Positions 3,788-16,884 of a stretch of 28,135 nt of DNA are shown piece after piece (position 1 is the stretch's first letter; the number at the start of each line of letters is the position of its first letter). The position numbers and the translations under genes were made by a program. The DNA is from a virus. Taxonomy: Duplodnaviria > Caudoviricetes. Location of the stretch: IMG/VR virus record IMGVR_UViG_3300044731_001657, positions 1 through 28,135 of that record. One strand, 5' to 3'. The notes below the pieces were generated by a model. The model was not told where the DNA came from and ran no database searches. It saw only the letters and a list, made by a program, of their open reading frames with translations.

Positions 3788-3933
3788 TTCTTGGCGAAGA
3801 GGCGCCGGCAGACCTCGAGGAGTGCGCCAGCAGGCAGGCACGGCGAAGTGCCGTAGTTGTCCGTGATCTGGGCGCCGCAGTGGCGAGCAACCATCTTCCA
3901 GAAGTTAATGTTGTCGATAGTGCGGTGGTTCAT
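3784..3933 (-). CDS. Small hypothetical protein (49 aa)
   Basis: MNHRTIDNINFWK...; ATGA overlaps at both ends. Confidence 0.6.
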   Translation of the reverse strand: MNHRTIDNINFWKMVARHCGAQITDNYGTSPCLPAGALLEVCRRLFAKK

Positions 3934-5117
3934 GGCTGGTGCTCCATCAGCTCGCCAACGAGAACTCTCCAAGCCCGCTCAACGGTGGGCACGCAGACTC
4001 CATTGCCGAGGAGTCGCAGCTCATCGGTGCGATTGTCTGTGGAGACGTGCAGGACGGCATCGTCCAGCCGATGGGTAAGCCCATCAGCGTCTCGACCCAG
4101 CGTGGGTTGAGTTTGCCGCTGCTCCGCTTCATGTCCTCCGGCAGCATCGACCTCGCTCCCGATCCGCCGTCCAAGCCGTGGCTGCCGCCGTTGCCGGTGC
4201 ATGAGGCTGGTGTCGGCCACATTCCATTGACCATCTCCGGCAAGTTCTGCCCTCGAGATTCCCATTGCTTGCAGGCTTCCGGTGTCGTTGCACCCTTGTG
4301 GTCGCAGGCATTGGGCGTTGCCAACCACAACCCTTGGCGGCTCCCAAGCGAACTGCTGCTCGCCGGGGCGGCTTGGCCATGGAGTTGCACCGCAATGGTC
4401 AGCTGTGTCCCGCATCCGTTGCCGTTGTAGCCCTTGGCCTTCATCGCTTCCTTGCGCTTGAGCCATGTCTCCGGCGACTCGCCGTCTTGTGAGACTTGGG
4501 CGTTGGGCGTTGGCCACCTCGCTACTGCGGCCCCAAGATTTGGGTTCACTCGATTGCCTTGGGTCGGCCCGGAATCTTTCCAGTCCCGCGCGTTTGTCGC
4601 GCGCCAAGATGAAAATCCTTTTCCTCTGGTGAGGCGCGCCGCACTCACTCGCGCTCGCCACGCACCACGTCGTTCGGTAACCCAGTCCTGCCAAGTCTTG
4701 CAGCACGTCGGGAAGCCCAAGGCTGATATGTCCCTCGACGTTTTCAGCGAAACAGACACTTGGTCGCATTGCAGCAATTCCGGCTGCGATAAACGGCCAG
4801 AGGTGTCTTGGGTCTTCGGCGCCGAGTCGCTTGCCGGCGGCACTGAATGGCTGGCACGGATAGCCGCCAGAGAGGATGTCCACGCGGCCGTGAAACTCGG
4901 CCCATGGGAAGGCTTTAAGATCCGTCCAGATAGGAGCTGGGTCCAAGAGTCCCGCTTCCATTTTAGAGACCAAGTTCGCGCAGGCGAAGGCTTCGATCTC
5001 ACTAAAAGCGATTGTGCGCAGGCTTGGGATTGCTCGTTTAAGTCCGAGATCAATGCCTCCGTATCCGGCACAAAGGCTGACGTGTGTAATGGGCGAGGTA
5101 GTATCCACATGGCTCAC
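3930..5117 (-). CDS. DNA (cytosine-5) methyltransferase, alpha-type polypeptide (motifs I-VIII and X)
   Basis: SLCAGYGG (I), GGYPCQPFS (IV), ENV (VI), HQRKRIF (VIII), LRLLGNGV (X); GTGA coupling to the upstream gene. Confidence 0.9.
   Translation of the reverse strand: MSHVDTTSPITHVSLCAGYGGIDLGLKRAIPSLRTIAFSEIEAFACANLVSKMEAGLLDPAPIWTDLKAFPWAEFHGRVDILSGGYPCQPFSAAGKRLGAEDPRHLWPFIAAGIAAMRPSVCFAENVEGHISLGLPDVLQDLAGLGYRTTWCVASASECGAPHQRKRIFILARDKRAGLERFRADPRQSSEPKSWGRSSEVANAQRPSLTRRRVAGDMAQAQGSDEGQGLQRQRMRDTADHCGATPWPSRPGEQQFAWEPPRVVVGNAQCLRPQGCNDTGSLQAMGISRAELAGDGQWNVADTSLMHRQRRQPRLGRRIGSEVDAAGGHEAEQRQTQPTLGRDADGLTHRLDDAVLHVSTDNRTDELRLLGNGVCVPTVERAWRVLVGELMEHQP
3947..5110 (-). CDS. Nested +1-frame ORF: putative methyltransferase beta polypeptide (TRD-like W-x-T-P modules and motif IX)
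   Basis: 387 open codons wholly inside the MTase gene; WPTP-type modules and LNPRWVETLMGLPIGWT (motif IX-like) at 4061-4111. The true start may be internal. Confidence 0.7.
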   Translation of the reverse strand: MWILPRPLHTSAFVPDTEALISDLNEQSQACAQSLLVRSKPSPARTWSLKWKRDSWTQLLSGRILKPSHGPSFTAAWTSSLAAIRASHSVPPASDSAPKTQDTSGRLSQPELLQCDQVSVSLKTSRDISALGFPTCCKTWQDWVTERRGAWRARVSAARLTRGKGFSSWRATNARDWKDSGPTQGNRVNPNLGAAVARWPTPNAQVSQDGESPETWLKRKEAMKAKGYNGNGCGTQLTIAVQLHGQAAPASSSSLGSRQGLWLATPNACDHKGATTPEACKQWESRGQNLPEMVNGMWPTPASCTGNGGSHGLDGGSGARSMLPEDMKRSSGKLNPRWVETLMGLPIGWTMPSCTSPQTIAPMSCDSSAMESACPPLSGLGEFSLAS

Positions 5118-7205: not shown

Positions 7206-7472
7206 ATGATTCCGATGACCAAGCGAGTGTCCCGCAAGCGGCTTGAGGCAGCGTGGTTTGCGCTGGGTCCGCCAGACTATGTGCAGCCAGACAAAACGCA
7301 GCGTTTGTTTTGGGCCATTTGGAATGACCCGCCGTATCCCAATCACTTAGACTTTGAGACCTACGAAGAATACGCCGCAGCCATAAGGGAGTGTGAGCGA
7401 AACGTGGTAAGGCTTTATTCTGATCCAGACGAAGAGTCCCAGACGGACGCAACATCCACCTCGCGGTCGTAG
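7206..7472 (+). CDS. Hypothetical protein, convergent with and overlapping the integrase 3' end
   Basis: 88-aa ORF (MIPMTKRVSRKRLEAAWF...) directly after a promoter; AT-richer than its neighbours. Confidence 0.55.
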   Translation: MIPMTKRVSRKRLEAAWFALGPPDYVQPDKTQRLFWAIWNDPPYPNHLDFETYEEYAAAIRECERNVVRLYSDPDEESQTDATSTSRS

Positions 7473-8527
7473 ACAGCGTAAAATCTGGCCGTTGTCTGCG
7501 GGCTTGCGTGGCCGAGCATGTGCTGCACTACGCTGATCTTTCCGGTGGCGTTGAGCATGTCGGAGCCAGCTTGGCGGCGCAGCTCGTAAGCTGCCGAGCG
7601 CCGGTCTGGCAGGAACTCGCGCACCCAGAGGTTAAAGTTGCGCTCCATGAATTTCATTCGCATGCCGGCGGTGCGACCGACAACCATGAAGTCGTCCGCG
7701 GCGAGCAACTCTGGCACCATCCATTGCGGCAGCGCCATGACCCGCCCGCGCTTGTGGCCAGTCTTGAGCGTCAGCTCCTCGTTGGGCCGCTCAATGAGCA
7801 CCATGACGTGCCGGTCGCCGCGGTCTTCGATCCAGCCCTTGCGGCAGTAGGCGACCTCCTTGGGCGTCATGCCCAGGTAGCGGGTCAGCAGGAAGGCGCG
7901 CCGGGTGGCGCCGCCGATGGCCTTGCTGCTGGCGTCCATCTTTTCCAGCGTCTCCGGCGGGATACGGATAAAGGTTGAGACCGGCGCCTTCATGCCCTTG
8001 GTTGCCGCGGCAAACTTGGCGATGGAGTCCGGCAGCTCAAAGCCCTCCCAGTCTAAGGGATGGGCGAAGATGGCCCGCGCCGACGCCAAGTTGGTGCGCA
8101 CGCTGTAGGCGCTGCCTTGAAACTTGGCGCGATACTTGGAGACCAGTGCTGGCGAGATGACCGAGAGCGGCTTGGCCCGCACAGCGTCATTGTCGCCGCC
8201 GAGTGCGGTGCGCAGGACGATGAGGAGGCAATTGACATTGGCGTTGCGGCTGGCGATTTTGCTGCCCTGCAAATAATGATTGATAGCCTTGCCAACCGGG
8301 AGCGCCGTGGCGCGCATAGCGTGGTCCTTGAGAGCGGTCACGCCTTTGGTCGCCGTGTCATTGAGGATCGCCTTGGCTTTCACCTTGGCCAGCTCGAGGC
8401 TCTCGGTGCCAAGCGAGACCCGCTGCCGCTTGCGGATGCCTGGGTTGTAGAACTTCAGCTGCCAGCGCGGCGAGGCCGCAGTGGTGTAAAGACGGCCAGA
8501 GATGCCGCTGCTTTTGATGGCGTGCAT
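7415..8527 (-). CDS. int: Tyrosine recombinase / phage integrase
   Basis: N-terminal arm-binding-like WQLKFY...RQRVSLGT...A; C-terminal YELRR...VQHMLGHASPQTTARFY; adjacent to a tRNA-derived att core. Confidence 0.9.
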   Translation of the reverse strand: MHAIKSSGISGRLYTTAASPRWQLKFYNPGIRKRQRVSLGTESLELAKVKAKAILNDTATKGVTALKDHAMRATALPVGKAINHYLQGSKIASRNANVNCLLIVLRTALGGDNDAVRAKPLSVISPALVSKYRAKFQGSAYSVRTNLASARAIFAHPLDWEGFELPDSIAKFAAATKGMKAPVSTFIRIPPETLEKMDASSKAIGGATRRAFLLTRYLGMTPKEVAYCRKGWIEDRGDRHVMVLIERPNEELTLKTGHKRGRVMALPQWMVPELLAADDFMVVGRTAGMRMKFMERNFNLWVREFLPDRRSAAYELRRQAGSDMLNATGKISVVQHMLGHASPQTTARFYAVYDREVDVASVWDSSSGSE

Positions 8528-8800: not shown

Positions 8801-9427
8801 ATGAGGGAAGGAGCAGAGTGGAAAAAGGGAGATGTCCATGCGCAAAGCGGCCACATCTTTCAAGGCTACCGCAGGTATCGCCGTCCAGACGGCACCTACA
8901 GGATCGCAGAGCGCTGGGCCAGCCCTGCCTGCCAGGCCAAGAACAACAAGGAAGCGATCCGCGCGGCCAATACCGCTTACTACCAAGCCAACAAAGAGCG
9001 CATCCTGCGCAACACGGCCCAGTGGAAAAAGGAAAACCCGGCCAAGTTCGCCGACCACCGCCGCAAATATCTCCGCAATAGCCCCAAGGCGCGAATCGCC
9101 AACAATTCCCGAGACCGTATCCGCCGCATGATTGGAAGCCAAGGCAAGGGCCGCGGCCGGTCAAATAAGCTTATCGGCTGCGATGCCTATTCACTTTGTC
9201 TCATCCTCGAAGCGCAGTTCATGCCCGGAATGACCTGGGAGAACTACGGAACCGTCTGGCACGTTGACCACATCATTCCCCTCGCCACCTACGACCTCAC
9301 CGATCCCACCCAGCAGCGCGAAGCCTTTCACTACACCAACCTCCAGCCGCTCTGGGCGTCCGCCAACATGGCCAAGGGCGACACGGTGGAGGGCGAGGAT
9401 GTGGTGCTGGAAATGCTGGCGGCTTAG
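8801..9427 (+). CDS. HNH-type endonuclease with a basic helical N-terminal region
   Basis: GMTWENYGTVWHVDHIIPL...FHYTNLQPLWASANMAKGD; YYQANKERI-type basic helix. Confidence 0.85.
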   Translation: MREGAEWKKGDVHAQSGHIFQGYRRYRRPDGTYRIAERWASPACQAKNNKEAIRAANTAYYQANKERILRNTAQWKKENPAKFADHRRKYLRNSPKARIANNSRDRIRRMIGSQGKGRGRSNKLIGCDAYSLCLILEAQFMPGMTWENYGTVWHVDHIIPLATYDLTDPTQQREAFHYTNLQPLWASANMAKGDTVEGEDVVLEMLAA

Positions 9428-9487: not shown

Positions 9488-12400
9488 TTATTTGTTACGC
9501 TTTGGCGCAACAAGTTTTTCTGGGAAAAATATCTGAAACGTCACCTCGCCGCCGTCTTCCAGCCGCAAGCCGTCATATCCTTGAGCGATAAGCTGGTCGG
9601 TCGAAAACTTATCTGTCTCATTCCAACCTCCTAGCTTGAGCTTCTTTTCATCCAGCAATCGCTCCACGATAGCGCCCTTGCCCGTAGCTGCAACATTGCC
9701 CGACTCAATCGAGCTTTTGTCCGTTGTAAACCAAATGGTGCCATCTGCTGCGCTACTTACGTCAAAACCGGCCTTTGCTATTACCTTAGCCGCCTGCGCG
9801 CTTGTGCCGTGGTATATGCGAGTCATCTGCGAGGATGCTACTGTGTCTCTGCTGCTTACGCCACCATCCGGCATCGCCTGCCCACGCCTCTGCAACGCCC
9901 GCTGCAACTGCGGATCTTCCTGCCGTACGCCACGGCGCTCCAGCTCTGCGCTGATCGCCTCGTTGCGCCGGAGCAGCTCGCGGGTCTGTGCGGCGCCGCC
10001 ACGCACCGGACGGCCCTCACGCATGCCCAAGGTGGACAGCCCGAGGTAGCCTTGGTTCTCCTCGTATTGGCGCAGGAGTTGGTCGGTGGGAGCGGACTCA
10101 AGGGAGTCCGGCATGGCCTGGGCGCGGATTCCTCGCTCAACCACAAGCTGCTCGCCCCTCTCTATTGCAGTATTTCGCAGCTCTGACAATTGTGCCTGCG
10201 TGATGTTTTTACCATCAGCATACAACTTGCCGGACTCCCTTGCGTTTAGGCGAACAAATCCTAAGTCCATATAGTCAGCAGTGCTGATGGGAAATTTTCT
10301 TCCTTCCAAAATGCCCGCATGACCATGCGCGCCGACATTCAAGAACTTTCCGTCTGGCGTCATCCATGCGGTTTGCGTTGTCATGCGCGGCTGTGCTCCT
10401 CCTAGCCGCATAACAGCGTCTTCAATGATCTGCCCGCGCGCCCCCACATCCGGCATCCCCTGAGCCTCCCGCGGGATCTGCTGGGGCATGCGGTTGTTGT
10501 TGATCTTGTCGTAGTCGAAGGAAAGCCCCTCGCGGCCGGTCGGCGTGAGGTCGTTGTAGCGGTCGAGGCGGAAGCTGCGCACGCTGCCGCGCGGGTTGAG
10601 GTCGCTGAATAGCGGGTTGGCCTTGCGCTGCACGGCGGTGCCGGTGCCGATCAAGCCGTTGAGCATGTCCCGCTTGGCTTGTCCGATACCGGCCTCACCC
10701 GGCAGTCCGTTGCGATGGTTGCCGAGGTAGGTTCTGAGGTCCGCCTCAATCACCTGCATATCATTGTTAAAGATCCCCAGCTCGCCGTTGTTGATCGCCT
10801 TCATGGCAGACGCGCGGAAGGCGTTAAGATCCATGAGCACCGTCTTGAGGTGCTTGTTGCCCGTCAGCTCCCAGCCCACGAACGCCACCTCGCGCTGGAT
10901 CGCCCGGATGTCGCCTCGGTTGCGGACGCGGTAAACGCCGTCCTTGCCGTCGCCGATGGCGTTGTAGTCGGCGATGAACGTCATGCCGCGCTCGCGGCTG
11001 GCCTCAAGCACTCGGGCAAATTCTCGCATCCATTTGGGGAAGTGGACGAAGTGGTCGAACTGAGCTGGCAGTGTGGGGCCGCTGACAATCGTGCGCCCAG
11101 AGTCTGTCGTGCGCCGACCGAACTCCGTTGAGTTGGGAGCCAAGATGCGCGACGGGTTGTACATCGTGTTGGCTTGGGACGTGCGGGAGCGTTCGCGGGT
11201 GCGCACCTCGCCAGGACTGCGCCATTGCGTCTTGCCGGTCTCGTCCACATACAGAAACTCGTTGCCAACTTGGCCGCCCTTGTCCGGGTCTGGGCGCATC
11301 TTGGTGTGTGGCGAGCGGGCCGCGCTGTCAGGCGTGCCATCGACAGACACCTTGGTGCCGCGGGTCTCCCGCTTGCCGGCGTCCTCTAGTCCGGCCAGCA
11401 AATCATTGTAGGCGCGCACATGCTCGATCATCCGCTTGCGCAGCACCGGCGACTGGAAGAGCGGGTTGTCGCGGAACAGCACCGAAGGGTTGTCCAGCGG
11501 CTTGCCGGTCGTGCGGTCGAACTTGGCGCCCAGCACCTCCAGCACGCGCGCCGAGGTAGCCAGAGCGCTCTCCAGCACCTTGGGTCCGCCTGCGCGGATG
11601 CCGCGGAAGTCGATGCCCTTCGCCTCACCGGCAAACTGCTCGGCTGTTACCTCGTCCCTTGCCCAGTCGTAATCATTGCCGCCCCTTTCGCGGCTGCGCT
11701 GGTTGTATTCATCGATGCGGGCGTCGATCAGCGCATCGCGCTCGGCAGCCTCCACCGGCTTGCCTTTCATCACGTCCGACATGGTGCGCTTGCCGCTGCG
11801 CACGTCGGCAATCTCTTCCGGCGTCAGCGCTACGGCCCCTTCATGCGTGCCGAACATGATGTCGCCGTCAACGATCTGCGCCATGTATTCGCGCCCGCGC
11901 GCCTTGATACCGTCCTCGCCGTAGACCTGCGTGACGTAGTTGCGCATGTCAGTGCGGATGTCTCCGTCAAGGATGTCGCTGGTCAGGATTGCGTGGGCAA
12001 TTTCGTGCGGCATCGAGCGGCTCGGCGGCATGTAGTCCACGACCTGCTGACCGGCCTTGACCGTGTCGCCGTCATTGACCAGCAGTCGCCGTCCCTTGGG
12101 TGCAGCGATAAATTCCGTGCGGCCATCATTCCCGCGGACACGCACCTCGCGGACGCCATCGCCGCGGTCACGGACGCGCACCTTGCCATCCATTGAGGCT
12201 GGCTCGCCGACATTGATGAAGATACGCGCCGTGCCGTTGCTGGCCTTCTCGATGAACACACCAGCGCCGGTCTCGTTGCCCGTGGCCCGCACGTCCACAT
12301 TCGCGCGGTAGTCTGAGGCGCGTAGAGTCACAAAGTCTGTCTTGCCCGCCACCACACCCTGCATTCCGGCGATCTGGCCGAGGCGGTCACGTCCAAGGGA

Positions 12401-14110
12401 AATTAGAGCGGGCACATCGCCGTTCACCGCATGCACGTCGATCAGCATTCTGGCGATGTCGGCATCTTTGCGAGAGCTGCTACGCCCGAATGCACCGGCA
12501 AATGGTCCCGCAAAGGTGCCGAGCGTTGCGGCGCCACCAACAATGGCCCCCGCTTGCTCTGCGTCCGGCGCCAGCAAGGCGAACGGCGTAGACGCCAGCG
12601 TGGCCGCAATACCAGAAGACACGGCGTCATCCGCAAAGCGCACCGCCTGCGTCACGCCCGCGCCGTCAGCCAGTCGCGCCAGCTTCCGCGTGATCTCCGG
12701 GTTGTCGGGGTTTTTGGCCACACGGCCCAGCGTGCTTTCCACGCCATTGGCGTAGGGTCGCATGTAGGCGGCGTATTGTGGCGGCACGGTGCCGGTGCGC
12801 AGCAAATCATCAGCCGCCGCCTGACGCACGGCACCAATATTGCCGGCGCGCATCTCGCGCAGCACCATGGCGCCAGTGCCAGCGGCTTGGGAGGTCTTGC
12901 GGATCGTCCCGCCGACCAGCTTGTAGGCTGGCACAATACCGCTTACCGCTGCGACCGGCAGCAGCACGCTGTCCATGCCATCCGTATTGGCCGCCAGCAG
13001 ACCTGCGCCGCCGCTGACCGCAGCAAGCGAGGCCACCTGTTGCGTTTTGCTAAGTCCCGTCTTGTCGGTAACGCGCGCAGCGACCCTAGACCCAAAGTCT
13101 TCCATGCCGTCCGCAACTCCAGCCAAGCCGCGCTCAACTGCCGGTAACGGCATTCCAGTCACTCGAGACAGGCGGCGCAGCACGCGCAGCTTGGAGAATA
13201 TGCCGGCGCCCATTGGCAGTGCGTTGGTAATATCTAGGCCCATTGCCCCAATCGTTGACACCGCCTGCATGGGCTGCTGCCCCAAGACCGTTGTCTGCTC
13301 GTTGGGGAAGGTCATTGTCTTCCCGCCCATCGTGGCCTCAGTAATGTTGCCAGCGTGCGAGCGGGCGTAGCTGTTCTGCTGCAGATAGCGCTCGTAGTCC
13401 TGCTCCTTATCCGGGCCGAACGGCGTCTCCTCAAACACACCCTCGTCGCGCGCCTTGGCGATGGCCGCCATCACGTTGTCGCCATCGACTCTTTCGTTGC
13501 CAGTCTTGGGAACTGCGGCGGCGATTTCGCGCATCTTGGCGTCATTGGCGTTGCCGCGCTGGATGGTGTCGGCGACTTTGTTTTGCCCCCAATTAACAAG
13601 CTGCAGCAACTGCACGCCAGCCTTGCGGCCAATCTCCATGCCAGTGGCTAGGTTACGCGCCGCAAAACGATCTGGGCGGAACATGTTTTCAAACCAGTTT
13701 TCGCGCAGCTCTGTGCCGGCATCCATGCCGAGACTTAGGAGGTTGCCCGGGACATCCTCGGCGCCTTGAAAGAATCGCGCCACCGCATCATCCTGCTGCT
13801 GCCGGTGATCGTACAAGAGCGAGTGCTCCGTATTGGTCAGAATGCGCTGCGGGTCGCGGCTGGCGACCTCGAGGTCTTGGTAGAACTGCTGCTCTTCCTG
13901 CTCCGAGATAGGCTGCGCCGTTGCCGGATCAAACGGCTCATCCAGAGTCGCCGTCTTCCAGTCAAACTCCGTGTCGATATTGACCGGACCCTGCGTTGGG
14001 GCTGGCATTGACCGCTGGCCAAATGTGGTAGCGGTCAGAGTCGCGGAGGGTTTGTCCTCCTCAACCGGCTGCGCTGTCGTCCAATCGAAATCGGGGTCGG
14101 CTTGGGCCAT
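9488..14110 (-). CDS. Large internal virion (DNA-ejection) polyvalent protein with a zincin HExxH domain and C-terminal ADP-ribosyltransferase-like cassette
   Basis: 1540 aa, last gene of the virion operon; N-terminal FD(W/P)xTAQP repeats, Gly/Ala hydrophobic segments, HEIAH plus downstream DEVTAE, C-terminal IYHGTS...IWFTT...GYDG. Confidence 0.8.
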   Translation of the reverse strand: MAQADPDFDWTTAQPVEEDKPSATLTATTFGQRSMPAPTQGPVNIDTEFDWKTATLDEPFDPATAQPISEQEEQQFYQDLEVASRDPQRILTNTEHSLLYDHRQQQDDAVARFFQGAEDVPGNLLSLGMDAGTELRENWFENMFRPDRFAARNLATGMEIGRKAGVQLLQLVNWGQNKVADTIQRGNANDAKMREIAAAVPKTGNERVDGDNVMAAIAKARDEGVFEETPFGPDKEQDYERYLQQNSYARSHAGNITEATMGGKTMTFPNEQTTVLGQQPMQAVSTIGAMGLDITNALPMGAGIFSKLRVLRRLSRVTGMPLPAVERGLAGVADGMEDFGSRVAARVTDKTGLSKTQQVASLAAVSGGAGLLAANTDGMDSVLLPVAAVSGIVPAYKLVGGTIRKTSQAAGTGAMVLREMRAGNIGAVRQAAADDLLRTGTVPPQYAAYMRPYANGVESTLGRVAKNPDNPEITRKLARLADGAGVTQAVRFADDAVSSGIAATLASTPFALLAPDAEQAGAIVGGAATLGTFAGPFAGAFGRSSSRKDADIARMLIDVHAVNGDVPALISLGRDRLGQIAGMQGVVAGKTDFVTLRASDYRANVDVRATGNETGAGVFIEKASNGTARIFINVGEPASMDGKVRVRDRGDGVREVRVRGNDGRTEFIAAPKGRRLLVNDGDTVKAGQQVVDYMPPSRSMPHEIAHAILTSDILDGDIRTDMRNYVTQVYGEDGIKARGREYMAQIVDGDIMFGTHEGAVALTPEEIADVRSGKRTMSDVMKGKPVEAAERDALIDARIDEYNQRSRERGGNDYDWARDEVTAEQFAGEAKGIDFRGIRAGGPKVLESALATSARVLEVLGAKFDRTTGKPLDNPSVLFRDNPLFQSPVLRKRMIEHVRAYNDLLAGLEDAGKRETRGTKVSVDGTPDSAARSPHTKMRPDPDKGGQVGNEFLYVDETGKTQWRSPGEVRTRERSRTSQANTMYNPSRILAPNSTEFGRRTTDSGRTIVSGPTLPAQFDHFVHFPKWMREFARVLEASRERGMTFIADYNAIGDGKDGVYRVRNRGDIRAIQREVAFVGWELTGNKHLKTVLMDLNAFRASAMKAINNGELGIFNNDMQVIEADLRTYLGNHRNGLPGEAGIGQAKRDMLNGLIGTGTAVQRKANPLFSDLNPRGSVRSFRLDRYNDLTPTGREGLSFDYDKINNNRMPQQIPREAQGMPDVGARGQIIEDAVMRLGGAQPRMTTQTAWMTPDGKFLNVGAHGHAGILEGRKFPISTADYMDLGFVRLNARESGKLYADGKNITQAQLSELRNTAIERGEQLVVERGIRAQAMPDSLESAPTDQLLRQYEENQGYLGLSTLGMREGRPVRGGAAQTRELLRRNEAISAELERRGVRQEDPQLQRALQRRGQAMPDGGVSSRDTVASSQMTRIYHGTSAQAAKVIAKAGFDVSSAADGTIWFTTDKSSIESGNVAATGKGAIVERLLDEKKLKLGGWNETDKFSTDQLIAQGYDGLRLEDGGEVTFQIFFPEKLVAPKRNK
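9866..10462 (-). repeat. Three dispersed 15-bp junction repeats CAGG(C/G)(G/C)ATGCCGGA(T/C) encoding Q(A/G)MPD
   Basis: Copies at 9866-9880, 10106-10120 and 10448-10462, all in frame. Confidence 0.85.
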
Positions 14111-14112
14111 TG

Positions 14113-15285
14113 CTAAATCTTGTCGAAGGTTGGTTTTCCTTGTGCATCGTATCCGCGGAACCTTGCAGGGCGCCCCTGGCCGTCACGATAGATTTTGCCG
14201 GGCTGGAATCCCGGCGCGGCAGCAGCAGGTGCTGGCTGCGCTGATGGCGTTGACTGGGTTGCCGCCGTGGGGGCGCTTTTGTTGGGGCTTGCGATTGCTT
14301 TTTGTTCCTCTGCCTTATTCTTAAACATGTCGTACATGCTCTCAAAAATTTGAGCATAAGACTCATCGTCGCGGCGATAGTTGAGACCACCCGTTGCGGC
14401 AGAACGAAGCATGGCGCGTTCTGTTTCGGTGAAGTTGCCCTGTCCTCGGTTTGCCTGAGCTTCGGCCAATGCGAGCGTGGACTCTAAAGTGTCATGGTCA
14501 ACGTACCATCCCACTCGATCTCCCTTTCCACTGCCAAAAACGCTGGCAATCATGCCGCTATCGAACGGCCCAACGCGCCCAAAATACTTCGGCGTCTTTT
14601 TCTCAGAATCCTTTTCGCCCTTCTTGAATCCGCGCAGGCGGTCCATGATCGAAAGAATGTCGTTCGACATTTCCACCGTCTTTTGCGCCTTTTCGGCTTC
14701 CACTGTTTTAAGCGCCCGCGCCTGCGGTGTCTGCTCCTGCGTTGCAACCCGGTCTTGCTGCGCGTGCCAATCTTGCACCAGTCCCGCCGCATATTTCGGA
14801 TCAACCTCTGCGTATCCCTCCGTGCGCTCGTAGACATGGCGCTGCGCTGGAGACCAAGACTGCGCGATGGGCTTGACCATCTCAACGGCCTTGGCCGGAT
14901 CGCCGGTCTGCTGGAGCGCCTGCTGGTAGGCTTGGCGGAAGTCGTTGATGTAGCCGAGGTCAAAGAACGAGCCTTCGTTTTGCAGCGCCGGAGTAGCGCG
15001 GCGGACTTCTGTCTCCTGCGTTGTTGAGGGAGCCTGTCCTGCGGTGTCGTCAATGACGGCCTGGGGCGTGATGCCGGCTTCCTGCTGCGCTCGGGCATAC
15101 GCTTCGTCATAGGACATTCCGCCCCTAACCAAGTCGTCCACCATCTGATTGATGCCGTTCATTTGGCTTATGGCGTCAAGTTGGTCCTGCGACATCACCG
15201 GCATGTCCGCGCCCTCACCATCGTCCACCGGCAGTGGCGCGAGGACCGTCATCGGAGGAGTCGTTCTGTTGTTTGTTAGTCCCAT
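14113..15285 (-). CDS. Putative internal virion / ejection protein
   Basis: 390 aa, helical, Q/A-rich; GNFTETERAML segment and a small C-terminal beta module; lies just upstream of the largest ejection gene. Confidence 0.6.
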   Translation of the reverse strand: MGLTNNRTTPPMTVLAPLPVDDGEGADMPVMSQDQLDAISQMNGINQMVDDLVRGGMSYDEAYARAQQEAGITPQAVIDDTAGQAPSTTQETEVRRATPALQNEGSFFDLGYINDFRQAYQQALQQTGDPAKAVEMVKPIAQSWSPAQRHVYERTEGYAEVDPKYAAGLVQDWHAQQDRVATQEQTPQARALKTVEAEKAQKTVEMSNDILSIMDRLRGFKKGEKDSEKKTPKYFGRVGPFDSGMIASVFGSGKGDRVGWYVDHDTLESTLALAEAQANRGQGNFTETERAMLRSAATGGLNYRRDDESYAQIFESMYDMFKNKAEEQKAIASPNKSAPTAATQSTPSAQPAPAAAAPGFQPGKIYRDGQGRPARFRGYDAQGKPTFDKI

Positions 15286-15763: not shown

Positions 15764-16054
15764 TTATTCCTCCGAGATTCCCGCCGCAGCCCGTGCCTCA
15801 AGGCACAGTTGTGATCCCGCCACAAACGCGCGGCAGGCGTTTGGTCGGTTGTTGTAAATTGAGCAAGAGACGCCGCATCCGACTTCGCCGGCCAGCGCCA
15901 CGCAGCGGTTGTTGGTCGTCTTCATCAAAGGGTAGTCGTCTCTAAGCATCCATTGCGGGATGCCAGCAGCGTCAGATCGGTCTCGTTGTAAGACTGGCCA
16001 GCTCCACTTGTGACTGCAGCATGCGCCACACCGTTGACAGTCGAATCGCTCCAT
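15764..16054 (-). CDS. YkgJ-family (CxxCxxCC) cysteine-cluster protein
   Basis: FDCQRCGACC...RCVAL...CSIYNNRPNACRAF...C; start ATG 16054. Confidence 0.85.
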   Translation of the reverse strand: MERFDCQRCGACCSHKWSWPVLQRDRSDAAGIPQWMLRDDYPLMKTTNNRCVALAGEVGCGVSCSIYNNRPNACRAFVAGSQLCLEARAAAGISEE

Positions 16055-16884
16055 GTCGGGCGGAAGCCCTGCGCGTCGCTCTGCAGGTCGATGTATGGTG
16101 CTAGATGGCTGATGTTGTTCGTCTCGCATTGATTCTTTGGGCAATAGACGGTGCCTCCGAGGTGCCGGTTCACGCAGTTCCAGCAGACAGGGTAGTAGTC
16201 GCTGTTCGCGCTCTTGTCCTTCCGGTGGCGCCACACGCCGTCCGCTTTCTCGTAGCGGGTTTCGTCGTTGGGCACGCCTTCGGCTTCCAAGTAATTCCAC
16301 ACGTCCGCATCGCTCCAGTGGCGCATGGGGTAAAATTGAGTCGGAATGCCGGCCTGCACCAAAACGTCCTGCGCAAGCGGCACATGGCCTTTGATGAGGT
16401 CCACATCGGCAGACTTTTGGCCGTGGAAGGCGGCATCCCACGGGAAGTTAAACGTGCCGGTCGGGCGCTTCAGAGCGTCCAGCCCGCACAGATAGCGTCC
16501 GCTGGCCAGCTCCTCCGGCTGCGGTTCTTCAGTGCCAAGGCAGAGTGACATGACCTTGTTCGGCGCCATTTCGTAAAACTTTACAAAGTCAAAACGCGGG
16601 CTGCCGGTTTCGATGTCGTGTCCATCGGTGAGGGCGTATCCGCTTGGAGCGTAGTCATACATCTCTAGGTCCCATTGCGCCGCCAGCCGGTCGCTGTGGA
16701 CATACCGAGTGCGGAACCGCGGTTCCCGCCACTGCACAACCGGCGTCTTGGCGCCGACCTTAAAGCGGATCATGTGCAGCATTGCTGTGCTGTCCTTGCC
16801 GCCACTCCAAAAAACGACAGGGTTGGTGCAGCCGTCCAGCCACAGCTCAACCTTACGACACGTCTCTGCGACTAGGTTTGTCAT
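15925..16884 (-). CDS. PAPS-reductase/FAD-synthetase-like PP-loop protein
   Basis: VVFWSGGKDS PP-loop, FHGQKSAD, YPMRHWSDADVWNYL; C-terminal CWNC...CPKNQC; no CysH ECG(L/I)H tail. Confidence 0.85.
   Translation of the reverse strand: MTNLVAETCRKVELWLDGCTNPVVFWSGGKDSTAMLHMIRFKVGAKTPVVQWREPRFRTRYVHSDRLAAQWDLEMYDYAPSGYALTDGHDIETGSPRFDFVKFYEMAPNKVMSLCLGTEEPQPEELASGRYLCGLDALKRPTGTFNFPWDAAFHGQKSADVDLIKGHVPLAQDVLVQAGIPTQFYPMRHWSDADVWNYLEAEGVPNDETRYEKADGVWRHRKDKSANSDYYPVCWNCVNRHLGGTVYCPKNQCETNNISHLAPYIDLQSDAQGFRPTWSDSTVNGVAHAAVTSGAGQSYNETDLTLLASRNGCLETTTL

Follow-up and report, generated by a model that had tools for sequence, protein, structure and literature searches.

A predicted sandwich-barrel hybrid motif inserted before the HExxH helix of a peptidase-like domain in a giant phage protein

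The insert and the domain that carries it

The window analysed here is a stretch of 28,135 nucleotides from a virus (Duplodnaviria; Caudoviricetes), positions 1 to 28,135 of the IMG/VR record IMGVR_UViG_3300044731_001657. The last and largest gene of its minus-strand structural run is an open reading frame at 9488-14110 encoding a protein of 1540 residues, which is likely an ejection (internal virion) protein, judging only by the position of the gene. An initial annotation of the sequence had noticed about 56 residues inserted between the strand RIFINV and the helix HEIAH of this protein, and had read them as a module resembling the jaw of the RNA polymerase beta-prime subunit (RpoC) within a metallopeptidase domain. 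The insert lies where it was described, and its predicted fold is the sandwich-barrel hybrid motif (SBHM). The features concerned are the following.

9488..14110, minus strand: polyvalent-type protein of 1540 residues, with a conserved core to about residue 1215, followed by variable cargo
11531..12388, minus strand: predicted zincin-like (MPTase-like) domain, residues 575-860, enclosing the SBHM and, between its two catalytic helices, a helical insert; boundaries approximate
12209..12226, minus strand: RIFINV, from residue 629, the final strand predicted for the peptidase sheet, immediately ahead of the insert, aligning weakly with the pre-HExxH strand of snapalysin
12032..12211, minus strand: SBHM insert, residues 634-693; the 56-residue segment first quoted is residues 638-693, at 12032..12199
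11993..12007, minus strand: HEIAH, residues 702-706, predicted zinc-binding/catalytic motif on a helix
11639..11653, minus strand: E820-x-x-A-E824, a helix in the model, one Glu being the likely third zinc ligand according to the role given in PMC5512222 (here and below, papers are cited from the accessible parts of their text)

Presence and absence of the insertion in homologues, a point already raised by the initial annotation, were checked with residues 540-940 as the query. The search matched 130 proteins, of which the best 120 were taken for counts: the insert is present in 49, absent from 70, and the site is uncovered in 1. The spacer between the strand and HExxH spans 66 to 74 residues with the insert versus 10 to 14 without it. 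The insert is a true indel, a clean addition of about 55 residues just before HExxH, and is specific to one lineage of lake phages. Profile searches added 6 insert-bearing members, giving the family set of 126 proteins (56 with the insert and 70 without). A single contig bridges the insert in all four lake or metagenome runs compared (4 studies, none of them marked as a possible source), and each of the five listed differences within it is at a third codon position. An intein, an intron or an assembly artefact is ruled out by the open frame and the bridging contigs of these four runs, with no joint or indel listed, and no RNA holder is listed. That the insert might be an integral part of the peptidase fold is likewise ruled out by its absence from the 70 homologues.

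The host domain is predicted to be a zincin protease on the basis of its motifs, its predicted secondary structure and a weak match to snapalysin. The first His of HExxH is found in 123 of the 126 family proteins, the other 3 having Glu, and HExxH, E820 and E824 are invariant in alignments A3 and A5. In a structure model of 333 residues, an N-terminal helix (37-50) is followed by strands at 54-59, 81-85 and 91-96, and the second-Glu helix lies at 278-290; the elements are thus predicted to follow one another as a helix, three strands, the HExxH helix, a helical insert and the Glu helix, in agreement with the MPTase description in PMC5512222. The only two PDB rows for the insert-less profile are Streptomyces snapalysin (PDB IDs 1c7k and 4hx3), aligned from the strands through HExxH with E-values of 0.25 to 0.26, which are not significant; in this alignment the SBHM insertion site maps to the short strand-to-helix loop of snapalysin, a secreted single-domain enzyme, unlike the giant phage protein. 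Peptidase_M60 was matched with an E-value of 0.0032 by one of ten insert-less members. A first Atlas search gave scores of at most 0.80; the lead cluster scored 0.94 and carries LPD23 on 18% of its members, and the leads are polyvalent-associated clusters. Zincins are absent from the fold searches of the 333-residue model, in which the SBHM filled the lists and for which no insert-less model was folded, so their absence is no evidence against a zincin fold. The metallopeptidase label of the initial annotation is based on the motifs, the predicted secondary structure and the weak snapalysin match at an E-value of 0.25.

The architecture is a variant of the polyvalent-protein peptidase with an SBHM placed before HExxH. 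MPTases are the commonest domain of polyvalent proteins, with substrates that are mostly predicted (PMC5512222). The phage domain resembles them in HExxH and a downstream Glu, in its predicted three strands and flanking helices and in a variable insert between the catalytic helices (PMC5512222), as well as in belonging to a giant multi-domain protein; among the relatives of this protein there are matches to ART-PolyVal, Kinase-PolyVal, methylase, PRTase and GNAT. It differs in having no match to a Pfam MPTase model and in carrying the SBHM in front of the HExxH helix. An HExxH domain is also present in the N4 vRNAP (PMC13434306).

Fold and possible donors of the insert

The insert was modelled with a pLDDT (predicted local distance difference test) of 91.4. 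In context it is predicted to stand as a beta block of its own, flanked by strand 91-96 and helix 163-173 of the 333-residue model, and its predicted fold is a compact all-beta unit that superposes on domains of the jaw, cytochrome f, biotinyl, M23 and EIIA types. When a profile of 15 sequences was compared with PDB sequences, the best single domain was the Thermus thermophilus jaw with an independent E-value of 1.2e-6, and none of 500 shuffles scored as high as the real sequence on any of three profiles; together these results place the SBHM likeness beyond chance, as had been supposed from the sequence pattern. The E-values near 1e-6 from single-sequence PDB searches are sums over several SBHM repeats, the best per domain shown being 0.11 to 0.35. 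The invariant columns of the insert are G1, G8, V10, G29, P37, L42, L43, V44, G47 and V50. The BFVD fold search returned nothing at an E-value of 0.001 or better, and PHROGs gave no match for the whole protein, the insert or the domain.

The SBHM is usually discussed as an RNA polymerase insert, and the present case extends it to a phage peptidase-like domain. No earlier description of an SBHM in such a domain was found in limited literature searches covering few subscription journals. The main text of PMC5512222, in its accessible part, contains neither 'SBHM' nor 'hybrid motif', and its supplementary alignments could hold a case; in the accessible text, PMC7824862 mentions SBHMs for the RNA polymerases of phages alone and PMC9503650 for NadV alone, and that of PMC11674741 and PMC13050939 adds nothing on the insertion site. 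A second case of SBHMs in an enzyme is seen in the patatin-like proteins P0183, P0168 and P0282, where two to three tandem copies start a few residues after GGGYLG.

Database matches headed by RpoC, which the initial annotation had named as a result that would support it, were seen in the word-indexed search, in which RpoC accounts for 23 of the 24 non-family matches, mostly at the jaw. Other searches bring cytochrome f level with it. By profile, the best single domains in the PDB are the T. thermophilus jaw at 31.4 bits and the Chlamydomonas cytochrome f at 30.8 bits, and among the best 150 of 193 matches from an exhaustive search of 1.84 billion representatives the non-phage single domains with the highest scores come from a cytochrome f fragment (46.3 bits) and from the jaw of an RpoC (44.8 bits). 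HHalign gives 99.2% for insert and jaw, 98.6% for insert and cytochrome f, and 98.1% for jaw and cytochrome f. Class profiles of the jaw are preferred by 7 of 12 non-redundant inserts and those of cytochrome f by the remaining 5, the window's own insert preferring the jaw at 55.3 versus 28.9 bits, in class sets that are biased, the jaws having been retrieved by similarity to the insert and the cytochromes being nearly all picocyanobacterial. The best pairwise score goes to cytochrome f for 8 of the 12 inserts.

Phylogeny likewise does not single out the jaw. In a careful tree of 50 rows, all 28 jaws fall on one side of a branch with support 99/94 and the inserts fall with cytochrome f on the other, no insert lying inside the jaws; a quick tree with 23 further SBHMs again joined the inserts and cytochrome f, with support 81. 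A tree constrained to join the inserts with the jaws was 10.65 log units better, with a p-value of 0.69 in the approximately unbiased (AU) test, on 59 columns only and with cytochromes skewed to picocyanobacteria. RpoC proteins match PF01333 too, so that a match to this family is no proof of origin. The insert has neither the haem domain nor the membrane anchor of cytochrome f, and the small domain (the N-terminal part of PF01333) is strongly acidic in picocyanobacterial copies, with a median net charge of -8 versus +1 in the insert. As far as 59 aligned columns can tell, the jaw and the cytochrome f small domain are indistinguishable as donors, in line with the early caution that the origin was uncertain.

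A recent capture from the host is ruled out by the GC content at third codon positions (GC3), which in the insert (0.73) equals that of the gene (0.74), and by the jaws of the probable host order, which match worst. RpoC jaws were matched in 43 of 61 Chthoniobacterales genomes with a best score of 34.3 bits. Among the three classes compared, these jaws have the weakest best pairwise score with 10 of the 12 inserts, and the lowest profile scores with all 12 (mean 15.8 bits, with 19.6 bits for the jaw of the prophage-bearing genome), the host being inferred and the profile narrow. Their being less like the inserts than other jaws or cytochrome f counts against a mimic of the host jaw.

In the Escherichia coli jaw (residues about 1153-1213; 1271-1328 in T. 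thermophilus), E1158 and E1188 are needed for Gp2 binding, and T1169, R1174 and M1189 contact DNA (PMC3778932). When the jaw residues were placed on the inserts by way of the E. coli sequence, G1161 and P1191 alone were shared by all 12. Glu is found in none of them at E1158 or E1188, the latter being also unkept in 14 other jaws aligned; the R1174 equivalent is basic in none, the M1189 equivalent is Met in none, and T1169 falls in a gapped turn with Thr in 1 of the 12, in a residue test that is weakened by the variation of these positions among jaws too. The idea that the insert was captured from beta-prime and acts as a mimic or bait, which would draw proteins of the host or the phage that bind the jaw towards the protease, or titrate them, is opposed by the missing Gp2-binding residues, the cytochrome f tie, the tree in which it is not nested among the jaws and the poorly matching host-order jaws, and we regard it as improbable; jaw mimicry as such is unlikely. 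A fuller version, in which jaw-binding proteins would bind the captured piece of polymerase, be delivered to the adjacent active site of the injected protease and be cut, is very doubtful. If true, this would amount to a novel way of taking over the host, by means of an integrated decoy directed at it in the opening minutes of infection.

The same residues bear on a DNA grip, by which the insert would, as the jaw does, contact double-stranded DNA without sequence preference and help the ejected protein hold or pull the genome. The absence of a basic residue at R1174 and of Met at M1189, a net charge ranging from -2 to +4 (median +1) and the fact that most relatives eject without the insert speak against this function, which we consider quite unlikely. 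With cytochrome f tying, the functional residues of the jaw absent and the charge variable, the proposal of the initial annotation that the module derives from the beta-prime jaw in particular, mimics it, or works as a decoy or a DNA grip was not supported, and of its three options a substrate-targeting or accessory module appears to fit best.

History and function of the insert

Trees were built from 280 residues upstream and 400 residues downstream of the insert and rooted on three insert-less prophage homologues. In the upstream tree, the 18 insert-bearing representatives form one branch (Shimodaira-Hasegawa-like approximate likelihood ratio support 94), requiring one change, and in the downstream tree nine insert-less proteins are nested among insert-bearing ones, monophyly being rejected with an AU p-value of 0.023. 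The simplest reading is one gain of the insert followed by recombination near HExxH, with long root branches adding doubt. The insert is under purifying selection, its non-synonymous divergence (pN) being 0.016-0.091 versus a synonymous divergence (pS) of 0.37-0.54, uncorrected, in 4 locus pairs of which 3 are not independent. Identity between the inserts of different subgroups is only 28-53%. Taken together, the sequences depict an insert that is old, constrained and somewhat faster-changing than the core.

Our preferred reading, which we hold tentatively and just short of an even chance, is that the insert is a mobile SBHM, an accessory and dispensable arm for binding on a protease that likely processes itself. 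It would have been gained once in an ancestor from a bacterial SBHM, with the jaw or the cytochrome f small domain as donor. The giant protein would be packaged and then injected into a Chthoniobacterales-like host, where the protease would cut its own polypeptide at repeated GQAMPD linkers and free the cargo domains. In the weakest step, the SBHM would bind a protein of the phage or of the host next to the cleft and alter timing or substrate choice, acting as an exosite that adjusts what gets to the active site. Self-processing is a role proposed for polyvalent MPTases (PMC5512222), and SBHMs contact other proteins in RNA polymerase (PMC8131849; bioRxiv 10.1101/2021.01.27.428476).

A folded binding module within the catalytic domain of a zinc protease is also known from the gelatinases MMP-2 and MMP-9, which carry fibronectin type II inserts (PMC3102199). 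The fold of those inserts is unrelated and the third ligand is of the metzincin type, making this an analogy and not a homology. We take the fibronectin type II inserts to lie in the same loop as the SBHM. The site next to the HExxH helix, the gelatinase analogy and the long retention of the insert, which is kept across deep subgroups though this stretch recombines with insert-less relatives, favour the binding arm.

The candidate cleavage sites lie in the protein's C-terminal part.

10448..10465, minus strand: AQGMPD linker, residue 1216, where the conserved core ends; candidate for a site of self-cleavage, a recombination joint or both
10106..10123, minus strand: AQAMPD linker, residue 1330, between cargo modules
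9866..9883, minus strand: GQAMPD linker, residue 1410, before the last cargo module
9491..9856, minus strand: last cargo module, beginning with a YHGT motif and present in 1 of the 126 family proteins

The linker pattern [AG]Q[AG]MP[DE] occurs three times in the 1540-residue protein and nowhere else in the window. It was found 70 times in 34 of 54 viral loci, always at least 500 residues downstream of HExxH, and also in two of three distant prophage proteins (L083 and L084). Cargo modules are shuffled across the family, the linkers standing between exchangeable modules. In the 21 relatives scanned, DUF7178, C5 methylase, Kinase-PolyVal and DUF7699 were matched above the cut-off and ART-PolyVal, PRTase and GNAT below it; the cargo of the window's own protein has no Pfam or PDB match. 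The YHGT motif presumably recalls ADP-ribosyltransferases, a label without Pfam or PDB support.

Several observations weigh against the binding arm. The Pfam, PHROGs and PDB profile searches gave no significant family or structure match for the peptidase domain. At least one linker is found in 40 of 56 insert-bearing and 62 of 70 insert-less proteins, and the linker is the same in both, which indicates that the SBHM is not needed for linker recognition. The linker codons are more uniform than the background (Asp is GAT in 43 of 54 cases versus 30%, a count inflated by shared descent), so that the linker could be a joint of DNA recombination rather than a cleavage site; these patterns would fit either role or the two combined. 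The exposed positions of the insert vary and its invariant columns look fold-maintaining, with no conserved binding surface evident. The median identity of the insert is 40%, versus 49% and 51% for the flanks (98 pairs). Finally, the proteins P0157, P0175 and P0176 keep the insert with EExxH in place of HExxH and with the second Glu lost, and their peptidase domains are, by these substitutions, likely inactive.

The missing conserved surface, the unchanged linker and the persistence of the insert next to degraded zinc sites speak for a tolerated passenger, namely a compact, insertion-prone SBHM in a permissive surface loop that has no binding job and is kept only because a misfolded copy would harm the protein. 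This agrees also with invariant positions that are of the fold type only, with an insert less conserved than its flanks and absent from 70 of the 126 family proteins, and with SBHMs having been repeatedly duplicated or inserted, both in RNA polymerase (bioRxiv 10.1101/2021.01.27.428476) and in the patatin-like proteins. Its retention across deep subgroups despite adjacent recombination with insert-less relatives speaks against a passenger, as does the low pN/pS, though folding constraint alone could give the same ratio. We rate a passenger as rather unlikely, yet as the main rival of the binding arm.

Persistence where the zinc motif is degraded would also suit a structural role unrelated to proteolysis, in which the insert would be a spacer within the assembly, packaged or ejected, or an oligomer contact there that joins copies to one another or to other ejection proteins, and weakly hydrophobic segments at residues 378, 496 and 523 precede the domain. 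The variable surface, the dispensability of the insert in sister proteins and the lack of direct evidence make this role highly improbable. For the binding arm, the family offers natural pairs with and without the insert, variants with degraded sites and a repeated candidate cleavage linker, making self-processing and exosite function testable in vitro.

Probable host and neighbouring genes

Neither the core nor the insert has a match among cultured or GenBank phages. Scanning with the head-closure-like gene yielded two loci, one in an Ilumatobacteraceae metagenome-assembled genome (MAG; 60% identity, on a 2.2-kb contig too short to show integration) and one in a MAG titled Chthoniobacter flavus (Verrucomicrobiota, Chthoniobacterales; 47% identity, on a 76-kb contig). 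The latter is a syntenic prophage with a portal of 49% identity, an SU10-type capsid, a terminase and a PAPS reductase, and it adjoins SMC and thymidylate kinase genes. The portal was matched in 6 of 401 genomes of that class, two of them near 50%, and the peptidase-like domain in 3 of 401 genomes of that order, one beside purH and purK; a scan of the genome collection with the full-length alignment found no relative, the three being found later by profile. All three prophage homologues of the domain are without the insert. These matches make a Chthoniobacterales-like host likely for the phage of the window and tie an abundant lake phage group to Verrucomicrobia.

Related prophages lie among housekeeping genes in genomes of the Verrucomicrobia group (L061 and L067-L070 in G001:C4; L085-L086 in G649:C38; L087-L088 in G323:C1). 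That of G323 is more distant, with a portal of 29-32% identity, and encodes a protein of 2410 residues that carries LPD3 together with an HExxH domain weakly resembling M90.

At the N-terminus of the 1540-residue protein (13900-14110, minus strand), an FD-x-x-TA motif is present three times, as FDWTTAQP, FDWKTATL and FDPATAQP. The genes upstream (14113-15285, minus strand, and neighbours) are strongly mosaic, the 390-residue gene being 35% identical in L004/L007 and the peptidase region 94%. Within the run of ejection genes lies a PAPS-reductase-family gene (15925-16884, minus strand), kept in many relatives and in prophages, and a Cys-rich open reading frame (15764-16441, minus strand) overlaps in another frame. 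After the giant gene come a tyrosine-integrase-like gene (7415-8527, minus strand) and an HNH/endonuclease VII-like gene (8801-9427, plus strand), which suggest that the phage may be temperate. A C5 DNA methylase frame (3930-5117, minus strand) is overlapped over its full length by a second long open reading frame on the same strand (3947-5110, minus strand); the Pfam C5 methylase match spans residues 11-199 only, and the gene is possibly frameshifted or read in two frames.
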